A stretch of DNA of 27,047 bases from an uncultured Candidatus Bathyarchaeia archaeon. GTDB taxonomy: Archaea; Thermoproteota; Bathyarchaeia; Bathyarchaeales; Bathycorpusculaceae. This document shows, piece by piece, positions 1,982 to 9,792 of the stretch. The notes under the pieces are model-generated. The model saw only the letters and a list, made by a program, of their open reading frames with translations. It made no database searches and had not been told where the DNA came from. Each line of letters starts with the position of its first letter. Within the stretch, counting starts at the first letter, position 1. The position numbers were made by a program, and so were the translations under genes. The DNA is taken from assembly GCA_964450845.1 (NCBI GenBank), contig CAYVGZ010000008.1, positions 1-27,047 of the forward strand, read 5' to 3'.

Positions 1982-3181
1982 CTAAACTATAGTTAATTCG
2001 TCTAGGTTTCTTGGATAATACGTAATTATCTCTGCGTCTCCTTTCGTTATCAAAACAGTGTCCGAATGCCTGAACCCTGCAAATCCAGTCTCGTAGATGC
2101 CTGGTTCGCAACTTACAACCATTCCAGCACGCAGAGGCTCTTCATTGCCTATGTCTAACCATGGCGGTTCATGCCCTTCCAAGCCCAAACCATGTCCAGT
2201 ATGATGCTTCACTAAATGCATCAAACCAGCCTTCTTAAACACGTTAATCGTTGCCCTGTCAACTTCGCTGCATTTGACCCCTGGTTTGAAGACTTCAAAA
2301 GCGGCTTCTTGAGCTTTAACCATCACGTTGAAACAGCGTTTTTGCTTTGCCGTTGGCTTGCCAACGATCATCGTTCGCTCCAGTTCACAACTGTATCCGC
2401 CTACGTCTGCTCCAGCACCCGTAACGACAACATCGCCTCTTCTAATCATACGCCTTGTGGCAATAGAATGAGGTATGGCACTCATTTCACCTATCTGACC
2501 TCTAAAGCCCACGCTTACAGGAGAACTTCTACGCATGGGCTCATAATCTGGTCCCAAAGCCTTCTTCATTATTATGGATGCTTCATGCGAAGCTGCTAAG
2601 GCAACGTCAACATCCCATAAGCCTTCAGCCGTATACTCTTGCAACAAACTATGAGCTAGGTTTGCCCATTTGGCGCTCTCCTTCATGAGATTTATTTCCT
2701 CTTCAGATTTTATGAGGCGCATAGAAGGCACCAAATCCTTCACATCCACAAACTTTGCTTCCCAAAACTTCTTCGTGATCGGTGGACCTTTGTAGCCCCA
2801 GATTCCAGCAGCCCCAGCTTTGCTGTCAATGCCTATGCGCTTTTTGGCGAAACCCATTTCCTTCAAGAAACCAGCAAAATAGTCAATAGGATGTCTTTCT
2901 CCAGGATAATCTACATAAGTCTTGACCTCTTCAATCACTCTCGTTTTTAACGGAACATTATCTTTTTCCAGAAGTGGACCCATAAAGGTGATTTTGCCAT
3001 CAACTGGCACTATTACTGCTACTGGTCTTTCAGTGGCGATGAACGAGTAACCTGTTACGTAGAATATGCTCGTAGGGTTCGTTAAATATATGGCGTCAAG
3101 CTTTCGCTTCATTAAAAATTTTCTTACCCGTTGTACGCGGCGTTTATATTCGGCTTCGCTGATTGAAAAGTTTACCATCAT
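1982..3181 (-). CDS. M24 (Xaa-Pro peptidase/creatinase fold) hydrolase with atypical metal ligands
   Basis: Creatinase-type N domain, LIKSEEEI linker, GHGLGL..HE and EPG motifs. Likely ATG at 3181 or 3178 after GAGGG (ORF track TTG 3190). Confidence 0.85.
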   Translation of the reverse strand: MMVNFSISEAEYKRRVQRVRKFLMKRKLDAIYLTNPTSIFYVTGYSFIATERPVAVIVPVDGKITFMGPLLEKDNVPLKTRVIEEVKTYVDYPGERHPIDYFAGFLKEMGFAKKRIGIDSKAGAAGIWGYKGPPITKKFWEAKFVDVKDLVPSMRLIKSEEEINLMKESAKWANLAHSLLQEYTAEGLWDVDVALAASHEASIIMKKALGPDYEPMRRSSPVSVGFRGQIGEMSAIPHSIATRRMIRRGDVVVTGAGADVGGYSCELERTMIVGKPTAKQKRCFNVMVKAQEAAFEVFKPGVKCSEVDRATINVFKKAGLMHLVKHHTGHGLGLEGHEPPWLDIGNEEPLRAGMVVSCEPGIYETGFAGFRHSDTVLITKGDAEIITYYPRNLDELTIV

Positions 3182-3255
3182 ATCCCTCAAAATGGTTGTT
3201 AAATGTTATAGTGCTGTAAACGCATAAATGCTTTTCACAGCAAGTACAAAACTTC

Positions 3256-4129: not shown

Positions 4130-4915
4130 TTAGACAGAATGTTTCATCGCTTTGCGAGCAAACGTTATGTAACCCGTATGAGCAGTCATTAACGTTTGTG
4201 GTCGCGTTTTTCCTCTTTCGATCTGCATTCCACGCATTAAACACTCAACCGTTTCCATGTCCACAAAGCCATTTTCATTCAACGCTTCAACTGTTTTGAC
4301 GACTTGGTCTATTGTTGGGCTGAAAGAAACCAACGTGCCACATGGCTTTAGAGCATCGCATGCATGAGGGACAACAAGCCACGGTGTTGCTAAATCCAGT
4401 ACAACCGCGTCAACTTCATTTTCCTCTATGCCTGTGGTAACATCCTTATTCTTCAGTTCCACGAAGTCGATTAGGCGAGCACGTTTCAAGTTTTTCTCTG
4501 CTGTTGTCAAAAATTCCTCTCTTATTTCATAGCTGTAAACCTTACCGTCTGGCTTAACGTAATGAGCCAAAGCTGTTGTTAGCGCCCCTGTGCCTGTTCC
4601 AGCTTCTACAACACGGCTTCCAGGACCTATTCCACTAAACATCACTATCAGGGCTATGTCTTTAGGATAAGTTATCTGAGTTTTCCGCACAGACTTCATA
4701 ATAAAATCGCGCAAAAGAGGCTTCAACGCTGTAAATTCAACGCCTAAGCTGCTTAGAATGCAAGAGCCGTAATCTTTTCCAATTAAATCATCAAACTTTA
4801 TGAAACCCTTATGTGTGTGGAAACTTTTGCTAGCTTCAACCTTAACCAAATAGGTTTTTCTCTGAGTTAGATAAAGGAGTATGTAGTCTCCTTCCGTTAT
4901 CTTTTGGTCTGACAA
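4130..4915 (-). CDS. trmI: tRNA (adenine-N1)-methyltransferase TrmI (GCD14 family)
   Basis: FHTHKG N-terminal motif, QITYPKD, SAM motif VEAGTGTGALT, YEIREEF, DLATPW and C-terminal AHTGYITFARK. Confidence 0.93.
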   Translation of the reverse strand: MSDQKITEGDYILLYLTQRKTYLVKVEASKSFHTHKGFIKFDDLIGKDYGSCILSSLGVEFTALKPLLRDFIMKSVRKTQITYPKDIALIVMFSGIGPGSRVVEAGTGTGALTTALAHYVKPDGKVYSYEIREEFLTTAEKNLKRARLIDFVELKNKDVTTGIEENEVDAVVLDLATPWLVVPHACDALKPCGTLVSFSPTIDQVVKTVEALNENGFVDMETVECLMRGMQIERGKTRPQTLMTAHTGYITFARKAMKHSV

Positions 4916-4924
4916 CAGCCATCC

Positions 4925-6403
4925 CTAAGGCGTGTATTTAAACGGATGCTTCGACCTATCCTTATTTTCTATCAACTCATCTATGCTAGGTCTGCCTTCC
5001 ACTGTTTTGCGTATTGCATGGCGCATCGCCTTGTAGTTGTTTATGTAAACCCGTTGTCTATCAACAGCGGTTGGGTGAACAAACACGTTCGCAATGATAA
5101 TTAGGTCTTCAGCAACCTCCTTTGGAACGGTGCCATCTGCAACACTGTCAATGACTGCTTTCGCAACTGCTGTTTGAGCTGGACCATAAACCATGCTTGC
5201 CTGACGCATGCCCGTAATCGTAACCGTAGGAACAATCAATGTTACAGGCTTAACGGCTAGATTTGGCTCCAGAATAGCCAGCAATGGCTCATGCCCGGGC
5301 ACTGGCGTCGCTTTAGCTTTGGCAAACGCCTCACCAACTGGACCATCTTTGTTGCCTAGAAGAAGGTCGATGTGGGCTACTTCTGCTCCTTGTCCAGCTA
5401 ATGCCTCGCCTACTCGTAGTTTAAAGTCTTTTATTGTTTCTGGTGTTATGTTTATCGCCATGAAACGTTCTTCTATAGGCTTTTCAGCAATTTCAAACGT
5501 TATTGGTTTAGGCTTTATTTTGCCGATTTTTTCCAAGTCAAGGCGTAACTCTTCTTTGGCTTCGTAGGTTAGTTCTCCTCCAACACTCAGTGGCTTTCTG
5601 ACGGGACCAACTTTGATTTTCATCATGTTTAGGGCTTCTTTTGTGCCTACTGCTCCGCTTCCAGCTATTATTCTGGCTATTTTCTGCACTTTATATTGCA
5701 GTTCACGGGCTTCTTGCAATTCACCATTCTTCACATGGTTGTAGATTTGAACCCAAATGTCAGGTATGACATTAGCGCTTGCCAAAATAGCGCCTGAGCA
5801 TCCAGCGGCTAATGCCGCAATGACAACTTCGTCATGCCCACATAAAACGTTGATTTTGTCTCTGACCTTTTCCAGTACAGCTAAGATAAAACTTAATTGT
5901 CCACTACTGTCTTTTACGCCGACAATGTTTGGAATTTGAGCTAAATCTTCGACCATCTGCCAAGGCAGTGGTAAACCCGTGCATTGTGGAATGTTGTAGA
6001 GAATTATTGGCAGGTCAACTTCGCTGGCGATTGTATTGTAATGTTCGTAGATTCCGCGGTCTGCAGGCTTCAAATAAAATGGCGTAACAATCAAGGCGGC
6101 ATCGGCGCCAACATCTTTTGCATATTTCGTCATTTCCACGGCTTCGTTTGTTCCGCTGGCTCCAGTTCCAGCAACCACAGGAACCCGTCCGTTAGCCTCG
6201 TCAACCACGATTTTTATGGCACGTTTTTTCTCTTCTGTCGTTAAGTTTACAAACTCGCCGGTCGTGCCGCATGGAACGACTCCGTGAACGCCTAACTCAA
6301 TGCAGTGATTAACCAAAACTCGCAGTCTTTCTTCGTCAACAGTTTTTCCATCATCCGTGAAAGGCGTAACCAAAGCAGGCAAAATCCCTTCAGGTTTGAA
6401 CAT
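4925..6403 (-). CDS. dapA-fae: Fusion of a DapA/NAL-family class I aldolase (aa 1-~295) and formaldehyde-activating enzyme Fae (aa ~327-492)
   Basis: Aldolase motifs GTTGE, LYNIP and Schiff-base K164 (VKDSSG). The C-terminal domain aligns colinearly with Fae (VGEAL.G..EVAHIDL, LLA..EPN..KP.TL, GPAQ, VF.H, NY.A, HPF). Single uninterrupted ORF with GGTGA upstream of the ATG. Confidence 0.92.
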   Translation of the reverse strand: MFKPEGILPALVTPFTDDGKTVDEERLRVLVNHCIELGVHGVVPCGTTGEFVNLTTEEKKRAIKIVVDEANGRVPVVAGTGASGTNEAVEMTKYAKDVGADAALIVTPFYLKPADRGIYEHYNTIASEVDLPIILYNIPQCTGLPLPWQMVEDLAQIPNIVGVKDSSGQLSFILAVLEKVRDKINVLCGHDEVVIAALAAGCSGAILASANVIPDIWVQIYNHVKNGELQEARELQYKVQKIARIIAGSGAVGTKEALNMMKIKVGPVRKPLSVGGELTYEAKEELRLDLEKIGKIKPKPITFEIAEKPIEERFMAINITPETIKDFKLRVGEALAGQGAEVAHIDLLLGNKDGPVGEAFAKAKATPVPGHEPLLAILEPNLAVKPVTLIVPTVTITGMRQASMVYGPAQTAVAKAVIDSVADGTVPKEVAEDLIIIANVFVHPTAVDRQRVYINNYKAMRHAIRKTVEGRPSIDELIENKDRSKHPFKYTP

Positions 6404-6551
6404 GACACATCTTCACCTTGTTATTTCAATCATAGTCATTATATCATTTAAGATTTAAGATGATAACCTTGTTTCTGCTACAATAAAAAGAGAAGTTGAG
6501 TTCTAAATTGCTGTTGGGGCTTCATTCGTGGAAGAGATGCGAGCGAACTTG

Positions 6552-8333
6552 TCAGAGGGTTTTTTCAAGCATGTCAATGAATTCTTCAGCTTGTTTAATG
6601 CCCTTTTCCCAGAATTTCTCATCAGTAATGTTCAAGCCTAGTTCGTTGATGAGTTCAGAGGGGGACTTGCTGGAGCCTGCCGCTAGAAGCCCTTTTAACT
6701 TTGGAACGAAGCTCTTGCCTTGTTCCTTGTAGAGCTTGTAAAGAGCAAATACAAATAGCTGGGCGAACACGTAGGGGTAATTGTAGAAGCGATAATTTGC
6801 CATGTAATAGTGTGGCTTCATGGTCCATTCCCACTCCATCACGTCCAGCCAATCAACAGAATCACCATAGATTTTATCCCGTGCCGCGACCCACAATTTT
6901 GCAATAGTTTTTCCGTCTAGGAATTGTCCTCGCTTTATGGCGTCGTACATGTTTTGTTCGAAGAAAACCCTTGCTGAGACTTGAAAGGCTGCCATGCCAA
7001 ACTCGTCCAGCACACTTGTAAGAATCGCTTGCTTCTCCTCTTTTGTCTTAGCTTTCTTAAGCAGTCGTTCAGTCAAGAGCAGTTCACCAAATATACTTCC
7101 AGTTTCTGCAATGCAACTTCCAAATTCACAGTTGCTTGGTTTCTGCGCTCTAGAAACAAGGTAAGCGTGAACAGCATGACCAAGCTCGTGCGCCTGAGTG
7201 AAAACATCACTCATTCTCGCATTGAAGCTCTGTAGGACATACGCGCTTTTTCCTGCCAACCAATCACTGCAAAAGGCTCCTGATCTCTTTCCTTTGCGTA
7301 TTTCGCCATCGATGTGACGTTTTTCATACATCTCAACAATCCAACCGCCTACCTGTTCGTCAAATTCGTTATACGCATCAACTACTTCCTTTCGAGCTTC
7401 ATTCCAGCCGTAGTTCATTTCAGGTGCGGTAGGCAAAGGAGCCATTACGTCGTAGTTAGCCAATTTATCTAGACCCATCAGTTTAGCTTTCAGCCTAAGA
7501 TACCTTTGATATAAACTCACATTCTTCTCTATGGTTTTCATGAGGCTATCAATGGCTTGCTGGTCAACATCATTGTCTATCAAGCTTTGGGTCATTGGAG
7601 TCTGATACTTCCTTAATTCACACATTTGAATGTGATCCTCACATACTGCTCGAAGAGCACTTGCCCAGACAATGTCATCCTTGCCGAGACCATCATAGAC
7701 TATTTGATTGGATTGTTTTCGCAGTTCACGATTTGGACTCTGATAGAAGCCAATGATTTCACCGTAGAGAAAGGTTTTTTTCTTGCCTTCAATTTCCATG
7801 TCAAAAGTTCTAGTGGAGAGCCAATCGCCTTGAAGCATCTCCCACGCCTTTATCCCATTTCTGTCTTTAACAATTATCAATTGCTCTTCAGTTTCTGACA
7901 GCATGTGCGGCACTCTTGTCAGCACTCTTTCAAGACAGTGTTTGTACTCTGCCAGTATAGGGTTCGTTACCAATGCTGATTTTTCAGCGAGAAGCCTACC
8001 CATTTCAATATCAATAAAGGCTAATGTTTGTTCAACTTCCATGTATGCCCTACGCGCAGCATCGTTAAGCTGTTTGGCAACATCATCAGTCGAATTGGCT
8101 GAATACATTAGACGGCAATACTTGATTACTCCTTCGAACTTGAGAAAAAAAGCGTCCTTCGCTTCCAAAAGCTCTAGGAGACCTTTCGCATCAAGGTTCC
8201 CAATTTTGCCGTGATACTTGTTTCGAACTTGCTCTGCTTCAGCTACCATAGACGTCAGTTTTTCTTGAATTGAAGCTGGTTCTGTATTGTCAACAAGCTG
8301 AGAAAGATCCCAAACCATCTCTTCTTTAGCCAT
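6552..8333 (-). CDS. pepF: Oligoendopeptidase F (peptidase M3B)
   Basis: WDLSQL N-terminus, GKRSGAFC, zinc motif HELGH, AETGSIFGE, HYY and FYNYPYVF. Likely ATG at 8333 after GGAAGGA (ORF track TTG 8357). Confidence 0.92.
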   Translation of the reverse strand: MAKEEMVWDLSQLVDNTEPASIQEKLTSMVAEAEQVRNKYHGKIGNLDAKGLLELLEAKDAFFLKFEGVIKYCRLMYSANSTDDVAKQLNDAARRAYMEVEQTLAFIDIEMGRLLAEKSALVTNPILAEYKHCLERVLTRVPHMLSETEEQLIIVKDRNGIKAWEMLQGDWLSTRTFDMEIEGKKKTFLYGEIIGFYQSPNRELRKQSNQIVYDGLGKDDIVWASALRAVCEDHIQMCELRKYQTPMTQSLIDNDVDQQAIDSLMKTIEKNVSLYQRYLRLKAKLMGLDKLANYDVMAPLPTAPEMNYGWNEARKEVVDAYNEFDEQVGGWIVEMYEKRHIDGEIRKGKRSGAFCSDWLAGKSAYVLQSFNARMSDVFTQAHELGHAVHAYLVSRAQKPSNCEFGSCIAETGSIFGELLLTERLLKKAKTKEEKQAILTSVLDEFGMAAFQVSARVFFEQNMYDAIKRGQFLDGKTIAKLWVAARDKIYGDSVDWLDVMEWEWTMKPHYYMANYRFYNYPYVFAQLFVFALYKLYKEQGKSFVPKLKGLLAAGSSKSPSELINELGLNITDEKFWEKGIKQAEEFIDMLEKTL

Positions 8334-8466
8334 AATTATTCCTTCCAGTCTATCCAAATCGTTTCAAAGTGTTATTAAAATGTTCCCTTCAACTGCTTAA
8401 AATTTGAAATAGGCTCTGACTTTTGGTTCCTCAAAAAGAGAATTTCCAAGTGAAAATGCTTAAATT

Positions 8467-9792
8467 TTGAAAGAGACTGAACACACTACTAAATGGAGGA
8501 AAACCTCTTTGGATGCTCTCAGAGAAAAATTGCGAATTAAAGAAGGCAATTTAAAGGAAATTAACGATTTTCTTTTGAGAAAAGACAGTCCCCTAACGAA
8601 TGGACTATTCAAAATTATTGAAAAATATGGCGGCATTGAAAATATCAACCGTAAAGCCAAAGAAGCACGCAAACTCGAAAACCTCATGAAACGACTTGAA
8701 AAGAAAAAATCTCCCTATGTGAAAGACCTTGAGTGGCTGATTAAACAGCGCGACAAAGAAGCCTTCATCAGCATATCAGATTACCGCAGAAAAATTTTGG
8801 GCAGTAAAGCGGATTCCACAAAGTTTGACGAAACTTTCGCCGTTACATTGGAGATTAGTGCCCTTAACTTTTTCCCATGGTTAGTAGAAGAGGCGAAAAA
8901 GGCTATTGCCCAGCAAGACCTAATGCCAGCCCGTTACATCCGCGTCCGCAACATGAAAGAACAGGTTGAAGATGATGACATTCTGGCGTTTCCAGCAGCA
9001 ATGCAGATTATAGGAGCTTCTTACGTGCAAACACTAGACACTAAAGGAACACTGCCTGGATCAGACGGCAAACCCATTAACGTTCATTTGGGAGGCCCAG
9101 AAACCATCACTGGCTATTTTGGAGGAGTAGGCGTGCCAAACGAGTATGCTTTGAAGTGGGTTGATGAATTTCTTTATTATTATACTGAATATGGTGTTCA
9201 GCAAGTTTTGAATGTAAATGCAGGAACAGTGATGCTGGGGTATTGGTTGTATAAACTTGGAATTGATGTGGAATTTAAGATATCAGTCTATGCAGGCAAT
9301 GATAATCCCTACTTCATTTTTTGGACTTTGATGACTGCAAAACTTTTCAGCCGAGAAGATGGAACAACTCCGCTTATCGGGTTTAACCTTTCAAACTCTG
9401 TTAACAATCAAACAATTGAGCTGTCAGCCTACATTAGGAAAGCCTTCAGCTTTGAGGACATTGTCCGCATTGAGCATCACATTGTGGAAACACAAAAAAG
9501 TATTGTGAGACAACCTTACGACCGCCTTAACGAACTCCTAGAACTAGCCGATCATGTCAAAAATATAAGCGCCAAACATGAAGGTGGAATCCCTGAAGTT
9601 GATAAAAACCGAGAACACCCTTCTGACATCTTGGAATATTTTATACCTAAAAAAGAAATAATTGAAAAGGGATTAATGCCGAAACTCTTGGGCAATTACT
9701 TGGACAAACACGACGCAGTAAACAGAACAGCTAAAGCTCTAACTGAAAGAGGCTTAACGTTTATTGCAGCTCAAAACTTGCACAAAAAATAA
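8467..9792 (+). CDS. Uncharacterised 441-aa protein with enzyme-like motifs
   Basis: Long clean ORF divergent from pepF, with Gly/His/acidic-rich motifs HLGGPETITGYFGG, GNDNP, EHH and KHEGG. No family I can name. Confidence 0.85.
   Translation: MKETEHTTKWRKTSLDALREKLRIKEGNLKEINDFLLRKDSPLTNGLFKIIEKYGGIENINRKAKEARKLENLMKRLEKKKSPYVKDLEWLIKQRDKEAFISISDYRRKILGSKADSTKFDETFAVTLEISALNFFPWLVEEAKKAIAQQDLMPARYIRVRNMKEQVEDDDILAFPAAMQIIGASYVQTLDTKGTLPGSDGKPINVHLGGPETITGYFGGVGVPNEYALKWVDEFLYYYTEYGVQQVLNVNAGTVMLGYWLYKLGIDVEFKISVYAGNDNPYFIFWTLMTAKLFSREDGTTPLIGFNLSNSVNNQTIELSAYIRKAFSFEDIVRIEHHIVETQKSIVRQPYDRLNELLELADHVKNISAKHEGGIPEVDKNREHPSDILEYFIPKKEIIEKGLMPKLLGNYLDKHDAVNRTAKALTERGLTFIAAQNLHKK

Follow-up and report, generated by a model that had tools for sequence, protein, structure and literature searches.

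The DNA considered here, hereafter the window, is the whole stretch of 27,047 nucleotides from contig CAYVGZ010000008.1 of an uncultured Candidatus Bathyarchaeia archaeon (assembly GCA_964450845.1), and its element of interest is a gene on the reverse strand (P0001; 4925..6403, -) that joins a class I aldolase of the DHDPS/NAL family to a complete formaldehyde-activating enzyme (Fae). Judged by its sequence, the product is a member of both the DHDPS/NAL superfamily and the Fae family, but it is neither the lysine-pathway enzyme DapA nor the bifunctional enzyme Fae-Hps, and it is best described as a further case of the theme of Fae fused to a formaldehyde aldolase, with a conserved partner, here called hyp441, of no known family. 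By analogy with Fae-Hps, we propose, at a probability of roughly 45%, that the fusion makes or cleaves a 4-hydroxy-2-oxo acid, with pyruvate and formaldehyde on the other side of the reaction, and passes the formaldehyde on to, or draws it from, tetrahydromethanopterin (H4MPT).

The gene is one uninterrupted open reading frame (ORF) of 492 residues with an ATG start, supported by two Pfam domains and by full-length conservation in relatives. Fae is a homopentamer, a symmetry that does not fit the tetramer of DHDPS, and speeds the condensation of formaldehyde with H4MPT; its Pfam profile (PF08714) matches residues 331-488 (4940..5413, -) over its full length (E 4.2e-62, 209 bits against a cut-off of 27), and the NCBIfam model TIGR03126 gives 218 bits for a cut-off of 118. 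The DHDPS profile is likewise covered in full by residues 4-291 (5531..6394, -; E 7.8e-83), an assignment that alignment and Foldseek comparison share. The initial annotation had read here a single ORF joining a DapA/NAL barrel to a full Fae domain, at about nt 5425-4925, with the catalytic His344 kept, and all of this holds: His344 (nt 5372-5374), within the motif EVAHIDL, aligns with the catalytic His of the Methylobacterium extorquens Fae (PDB 1Y5Y). The aldolase domain has the triose-phosphate isomerase (TIM) barrel fold, the Schiff-base lysine (Lys164, nt 5912-5914) and the Thr/Tyr/Tyr proton relay (Thr47/Tyr110/Tyr136) of the DHDPS/NAL class I aldolase superfamily (PF00701), and from the residues kept both halves of the protein look catalytically intact. 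The AlphaFold2 model has two domains, with a mean predicted local distance difference test score (pLDDT) of 84.6 and a predicted TM-score (pTM) of 0.80. Since it folds part of the inter-domain segment (residues 292-330; 5414..5530, -; pLDDT 63-86 here) as a beta-hairpin, with strands at 299-305 and 308-316, this segment would not be a floppy linker. The best Foldseek structures for the aldolase domain are DHDPS (TM by target 0.93), and E. coli YagE stands at rank 11.

In E. coli DapA, Arg138 of the motif Y-x-x-P-x-R-T-G binds the carboxylate of aspartate semialdehyde. The fusion reads LYNIPQCTG at this place, with Cys141 (nt 5981-5983) where DapA has the arginine; the DHDPS of M. jannaschii, A. 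baumannii and C. botulinum have P-x-R-T-G as against its P-Q-C-T-G, and the cysteine occurs in nearly all Bathyarchaeia and Asgard copies of the fusion. The canonical DapA of Bathyarchaeia carries the motifs PYVIPGRTG, KEATG and SGDD and is encoded 1-2 kb from asd. Compared with the asd-adjacent DapA of three genomes (G222, G282 and G330), the fusion aldolase domain is about 30% identical and does not behave as their orthologue, and G330 encodes both, the canonical DapA with asd and the fusion. Using a maximum-likelihood tree of 77 DHDPS-family domains, we found all 22 fusion domains in one clade, with a Shimodaira-Hasegawa-like approximate likelihood ratio test (SH-aLRT) support of 95-96, well away from both the canonical DapA group and the unfused paralogues. 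On these residues and this phylogeny, the fusion aldolase makes up a subfamily of its own, monophyletic and apart from DapA, within the DHDPS/NAL class I aldolases.

The NCBIfam model for DapA, TIGR00674 (cut-off 206.15), gives the fusion 253.8 bits, an unfused paralogue of the same genome 240.7 bits and the true, asd-linked DapA of relatives 228.5 bits; because it ranks the true DapA lowest, passing its cut-off does not discriminate, and this explains the systematic annotation of the fusion as DapA. Scores against four further NCBIfam models are below their cut-offs: 190 against 281 bits for N-acetylneuraminate lyase, 130 against 390 for the archaeal KD(P)G aldolase, 216 against 397 for the HpaI-like model and 126 against 374 for KdgD. 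The source genome is a metagenome-assembled genome (MAG) of 1.64 Mb, estimated to be 93.5% complete, and gene absences in it are to be read against that completeness. We found in it no dapB, no lysA, no match to the Semialdhyde_dh domain of Asd and ArgC, no Hom and no canonical ThrB, so that neither the substrate of DapA nor its pathway is apparent there. Thus the initial view that the protein is not a housekeeping DapA stands, whereas the separate canonical dapA that it had looked to beside dapB or asd was not found in the source genome, in which the whole aspartate-family pathway appears to be missing.

The fusion is neither a one-off nor a misassembly. Its pair of domains recurs, in this architecture, in more than 120 clusters at 90% identity, the members being 89-96% identical to it; where any name is given, it is 4-hydroxy-tetrahydrodipicolinate synthase. 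Of 401 genomes sampled from the phylum, 14 encode the fusion, the source genome included, and these belong to six GTDB families of the class; the 13 other Bathyarchaeia loci were retrieved and all encode full-length copies, 60-89% identical. An exhaustive profile-free search gave about 15 clusters at 50% identity that cover both domains, the named members of which are Lokiarchaeota/Promethearchaeota, Korarchaeota/Thermoproteota and one MAG labelled Anaerolineae. The Fae motifs GEAL..EVAH(I/V)DL and NNYKA..HPF are kept across the Bathyarchaeia and Promethearchaeota copies, and copies 57-96% identical within the Bathyarchaeia and Asgard clade retain the two active sites. One Bathyarchaeia copy (G360, L020) clusters with those of Promethearchaeota (compared: L025/L102; SH-aLRT 96) and not with other Bathyarchaeia, a placement that hints at transfer between phyla. 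In the literature, we found no paper describing an aldolase-Fae fusion and none combining the terms 'formaldehyde-activating enzyme', 'dihydrodipicolinate synthase' and 'fusion'; in papers on Bathyarchaeia and Asgard archaea, Fae appears only as a marker gene or in the reference list.

We compared 60 Bathyarchaeia genomes, 14 with the fusion and 46 without it. No strong Asd/ArgC match is present in 11 of the 14 and in one of the 46, and two or more strong matches occur in one of the 14 and in 42 of the 46; Hom is encoded by 1/14 genomes with the fusion and by 43/46 without, and ThrB scores over its cut-off in 2/14 and 29/46, respectively. The fusion thus marks lineages without the aspartate-family pathway. 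The source organism is probably auxotrophic for arginine (no ArgC match) as well as for lysine and the rest of the aspartate-family amino acids, a condition with which the two peptidases encoded in the window, M24 (1982..3190) and M3 (6552..8357), are consistent. PanB was found in 10 of the 60 genomes, eight of which carry the fusion (8/14, against 2/46 of those without it); as this association is positive and not complementary, we rejected the idea that the fusion substitutes for PanB, the ketopantoate hydroxymethyltransferase. The one-carbon (C1) branch of H4MPT, which the initial annotation had invoked, is encoded in the source genome by Mch (408 bits), Mtd (391 bits) and a separate Fae-Hps, so that methylene-H4MPT has a pathway to enter, for further oxidation or reduction.

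The partner gene hyp441 (P0122; 8467..9792, +) encodes 441 residues in the source genome and is called from a TTG at 8509 in relatives, giving 427 residues, with a family range of 427-441; a search of Pfam and NCBIfam at E values up to 10 gave no family match. Of the 14 Bathyarchaeia genomes that have the fusion, 12 also encode hyp441; of the 46 that lack the fusion, not one does. This co-occurrence is the strongest comparative signal around the fusion, and the initial annotation did not include it. Scanning one genome per species gave at least 595 stretches that contain hyp441, at 66-88% identity to the source copy, in Bathyarchaeia, Thor-, Prometh-, Hod- and Hermodarchaeota and in one Thermoplasmatales genome. 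It adjoins the fusion in 47 of 80 species loci (L031-L110): in 44 of the retrieved Bathyarchaeia loci it lies about 0.1-3.6 kb from the fusion and is nearly always divergent from it, while in Promethearchaeota and Hermodarchaeota it is found directly upstream on the same strand, with a gap of 20-35 nt or a 4-nt overlap, so that the two genes form a single operon in these Asgard archaea and are translationally coupled in some of them. Between Bathyarchaeia and a Lokiarchaeon, hyp441 is 66% identical and the fusion 57%, the partner being the better conserved of the two. A complex prediction for the two proteins scored 0.00, which is evidence in neither direction.

In its AlphaFold2 model (pLDDT 80.5, pTM 0.83), hyp441 has a helical domain at the N-terminus, followed by a TIM barrel. 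The invariant polar residues of the family lie on or just after strands 1-8, at the strand ends: E129, R159/R161, D191/K193, N249/N251, D279/N280, N307/N310, H337/H338/E341 and K370/H371/E372. Residues so placed in the model suggest an enzyme that depends on a metal and whose substrate is small and acidic. Searches by ESM Atlas features, Foldseek against the PDB, VIA-align in its wide form and Atlas shape returned generic TIM-barrel matches only: the fold matches are tied at Z 10.6-12.2 between a designed barrel, the 3-keto-5-aminohexanoate cleavage enzyme (DUF849), glutamate mutase E and chitinases, and the best Foldseek E value is 1.5e-3.

The genes found beside hyp441 and the fusion recur around homoserine. 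In two Bathyarchaeia loci (L038 4030..8284 and L050 1053..5245), a bona fide hom (434 bits for a cut-off of 373) and a gene for aldehyde:ferredoxin oxidoreductase (AOR) are followed by hyp441 on the same strand, and in one Hodarchaeota locus (L106 970..6340) hyp441 comes first, followed by hom and AOR, again on the same strand. Such a string suggests an AOR-dependent link between homoserine, aspartate semialdehyde and aspartate. The two Bathyarchaeia genomes with the string have Fae-Hps and lack the aldolase-Fae fusion. In G330, hom is convergent to the fusion. In Thorarchaeota, hyp441 follows the gene for an S-component of an energy-coupling factor (ECF) transporter and is divergent from a ThrC-family pyridoxal phosphate enzyme with a PadR winged helix-turn-helix domain, a synteny observed at L082 (4661..8272) and at 16 other Thorarchaeota-type loci; the source genome has a pair of ThrC-like and ECF S-component genes on another contig, C9 (L023 7436..9673). 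Directly after the closest unfused relative of the aldolase domain (55% identity) there is also a ThrC-family gene. As Hom and the ThrC-type enzymes act on homoserine, its phosphate or aspartate semialdehyde, these neighbours offer a clue to a substrate at the homoserine node.

A different lead for hyp441 was that it could be an analogue of ThrB: next to hom or thrC-like genes it sits at the position of thrB, and just two of the 17 genomes that encode it have a ThrB match. We regard this as weak: 18 of 48 genomes without hyp441 also lack ThrB, and in the genomes of family f4, discussed below, no ThrC was found.

4-Hydroxy-2-oxobutanoate (HOB) is the keto acid of homoserine. In the chemistry that we propose, Lys164 would form a Schiff base with a 2-oxo acid, either pyruvate or one close to it, and the resulting enamine would add to formaldehyde; in reverse, a 4-hydroxy-2-oxo acid would be cleaved, for which HOB is the simplest candidate. 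The Fae domain would convert the formaldehyde with H4MPT to methylene-H4MPT, or supply formaldehyde from it, and the hand-over between domains would mean that toxic free formaldehyde never accumulates, a logic as in archaeal Fae-Hps with another aldolase. Since HOB is the one pyruvate aldol adduct that releases formaldehyde on cleavage, it would rationalise the fusion to Fae. In this module, hyp441 would most likely make or consume the C4 substrate. As to the direction of flux, we lean slightly, barely past even odds, to the dissimilatory one, in which formaldehyde is released and captured. We infer formaldehyde as the partner, the coupling of the domains and this direction from the fusion to Fae, from the analogy with Fae-Hps and from the homoserine-node neighbours. 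The interpretation given at the outset, that the protein links organic-acid or amino-acid catabolism to the H4MPT branch, is upheld for the architecture, the residues, the distinction from DapA, the spread and the presence of the branch, and is still argued by analogy for the pyruvate-formaldehyde chemistry.

The closest known system is Fae-Hps (NF009833; Goenrich et al. 2005, as cited in PMC8407382), which occurs in methanogens and further archaea and in which Fae is likewise joined covalently to a formaldehyde C-C aldolase in an H4MPT-using archaeon. The fusion differs from it in that its aldolase, a pyruvate aldolase with the DHDPS fold, is of class I and works through a Schiff base, whereas the partner in Fae-Hps is the metal-dependent Hps, and in that the order of domains is reversed, Fae being C-terminal in the fusion. 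Against NF009833 it matches positions 2-161 of 392, that is the Fae half only, with 180 bits for a cut-off of 274, and so falls outside this family; the Pfam Fae score is about 210 bits for the fusion and about 235-250 bits for Fae-Hps copies. With DHDPS it shares the fold, the Schiff-base lysine and the Thr/Tyr/Tyr triad (39% identity to the M. jannaschii DHDPS, 2YXG), and it departs from DapA in the arginine, in the lysine-pathway context and in its phylogenetic position, as described above. It also resembles other pyruvate-dependent aldolases of E. coli, namely YagE and YjhH, which are 2-keto-3-deoxy-xylonate aldolases of the DHDPS family, and the class II aldolase RhmA; in these, however, the reaction with formaldehyde is a side activity, and they have neither a Fae domain nor a link to H4MPT.

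The same reaction series is known from engineering, as the homoserine cycle with a HOB aldolase and a HOB aminotransferase. Pyruvate-dependent aldolases of E. coli split 2-oxo-4-hydroxybutyrate to pyruvate and formaldehyde, and seven such genes were deleted to stop it, according to PMC13279387, which cites He et al. 2020; engineered strains obtain homoserine by condensing pyruvate and formaldehyde and transaminating the product (PMC8879981, PMC13279387). The source genotype, without asd and hom, is like that of the selection strains. The HOB route of He et al. 2020 is presented in PMC8879981 as synthetic and as using free formaldehyde, and HOB is called there a non-native metabolite; genomes with the fusion often lack thrB and thrC. 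A natural H4MPT-linked route between C1 plus pyruvate and C4 may exist in Bathyarchaeia and Asgard archaea, in which the fusion would make or use HOB, and hyp441 would perform the adjoining step at the homoserine or aspartate-semialdehyde node, wired to Hom and AOR in some lineages and to ThrC-like enzymes in others. Such a route would be nature's version of the engineered homoserine cycle, together with a new enzyme family; this complete scheme is tentative, and we consider it rather doubtful as a whole.

Several observations weigh against the pyruvate-formaldehyde chemistry or its coupling to hyp441. No residue of the fusion marks formaldehyde as the electrophile, and Cys141 lies within residues 140-143, the loop in which the model is least confident. 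For HOB, neither a natural source nor a natural sink was identified in the source genome. Four genomes of family f4 (94-97% complete) have the fusion and hyp441 with no ThrC-family gene found, which means that there is no uniform downstream route. The gene hyp441 is found without any fusion in Hodarchaeota, in one Thermoplasmatales genome and in some Bathyarchaeia, and this counts against a strict two-protein machine. As the 60 genomes compared are mutually related, the phyletic counts overstate their independence, and the anticorrelation with asd and hom may fit the displacement of a pathway or merely an auxotrophic, peptide-fermenting lifestyle. Finally, other lineages have tandem pairs of fusion paralogues with overlapping stop and start codons (L027 6528..9479, L029 6715..9398, L030 6544..9449 and a Thorarchaeon, G404:C2:80744-82602), and in several tandem copies the Schiff-base lysine is replaced by Ala or Leu, or the Fae histidine by Val, Gln or Tyr, and the C-terminus of Fae is truncated. 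Aldolase-plus-Fae chemistry is therefore not retained throughout the wider family, and such degenerate copies may be pseudoenzyme subunits of a heteromer or scaffold variants.

The same chemistry could also run in the assimilatory direction, formaldehyde from methylene-H4MPT being condensed with pyruvate to HOB, which would be transaminated to homoserine and so replace the missing branch of aspartate kinase, Asd and Hom, or feed aspartate through Hom and AOR. The near confinement of the fusion to genomes without Asd and Hom is what non-orthologous displacement predicts; the source genome has two ThrC-family genes and no apparent source of phosphohomoserine, and hom, AOR and ThrC-family genes recur beside hyp441 or the fusion. 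Engineered E. coli without the aspartate-homoserine pathway does grow in this way (PMC13279387, PMC8879981). We nevertheless consider net assimilation unlikely, since ThrB passes its cut-off in two of the 14 genomes with the fusion, the f4 genomes have no ThrC-family match, the distribution of a 466-residue ThrC-like gene does not track that of the fusion, and Fae is known to capture formaldehyde, not to release it (PMC8879981). The ThrB count, the 466-residue gene and the f4 genomes likewise weaken the idea of a pure bypass for threonine biosynthesis.

In a second alternative, which we hold to be about as unlikely as the first, the aldolase would use another 2-keto-3-deoxy or 4-hydroxy-2-oxo acid and release glycolaldehyde, glyceraldehyde, glyoxylate or a similar compound, with Fae acting as a tethered detoxifier or as an oligomerisation scaffold. 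DHDPS-family aldolases without the DapA arginine often use sugar acids, YagE is a close structural match, the source genome has a second, unfused paralogue, and the tandem lineages that have lost one or both catalytic residues and yet keep the architecture suggest a structural role. Against this, both active sites are conserved throughout the Bathyarchaeia and Asgard clade, general capture of formaldehyde is already served in the source genome by Fae-Hps, and fusions found across phyla usually mean a coupled function, as in Fae-Hps itself. Less probable again is non-aldolase chemistry in the DHDPS-like domain (a KdgD-like dehydratase/decarboxylase, a deaminase or a hydratase-aldolase), with a substrate supplied by hyp441 and with formaldehyde or another H4MPT-reactive aldehyde as by-product: the superfamily contains such enzymes, and KdgD and related NCBIfam models are among the weaker matches, but these are far under their cut-offs (125-146 bits against 278-374) and the full aldolase triad and lysine are kept. 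That the fusion is, as annotated publicly, the real DapA of the organism with an accessory Fae domain has in its favour the TIGR00674 score and a closest PDB sequence and fold that are both DHDPS, and is largely refuted by the uninformative ranking of that model, the exchange of Arg138 for Cys, the asd, dapB and lysA genes not found in the source genome, and the separate clade, about 30% identical to the canonical DapA with which it coexists in G330.

Few archaea are as abundant in anoxic sediments as Bathyarchaeia and Asgard archaea, whose carbon metabolism is known from genome annotation only. The DapA label that the fusion bears in the database names compared here inflates the predicted prototrophy for lysine where the rest of that pathway is not found. 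If the interconversion of pyruvate and formaldehyde with a 4-hydroxy-2-oxo acid is what the fusion performs, it would be the first aldolase found in nature to be dedicated to pyruvate and formaldehyde and tied to a C1 carrier, and would open a new way into or out of the H4MPT/Wood-Ljungdahl branch. It would also offer a ready-made formaldehyde-shielding part to synthetic methylotrophy, which now relies on promiscuous aldolases. For hyp441, a large family with members in at least 595 archaeal species genomes, the association with the fusion gives a testable context.

In the window itself, the fusion is preceded by a spacer of 148 nt (6404..6551, -) that contains, on inspection, AT-rich TATA-like stretches and a Shine-Dalgarno-like AAGGTGA about 8 nt before the ATG, and that is probably the gene's own promoter. 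No tRNA or Rfam RNA gene was found in the window. The oligoendopeptidase F-like gene of the M3 family that separates the fusion from hyp441 (6552..8357, -; Pfam) has this position in the source genome only and is absent there from the other 13 loci, which places it outside the module. A TrmI/GCD14-type tRNA methyltransferase gene (4130..4915, -; Pfam) lies 9 nt downstream of the fusion; it takes this downstream place in seven of 14 loci and is present in 42 of 94 loci, probably as a matter of synteny rather than of shared function. The unfused DHDPS-family paralogue of the source genome (G000:C10:12575-13435; L002 1480..2376, -) has 298 residues and the motifs GSNGE, YNVPKFTG and KDSSG; it lacks the DapA arginine and yet, with its 240.7 bits, is over the cut-off of the dapA equivalog model, and it adjoins ORFs that we named by eye as pyruvoyl-type decarboxylase-like, glyoxalase-like and Orc1/Cdc6-like.

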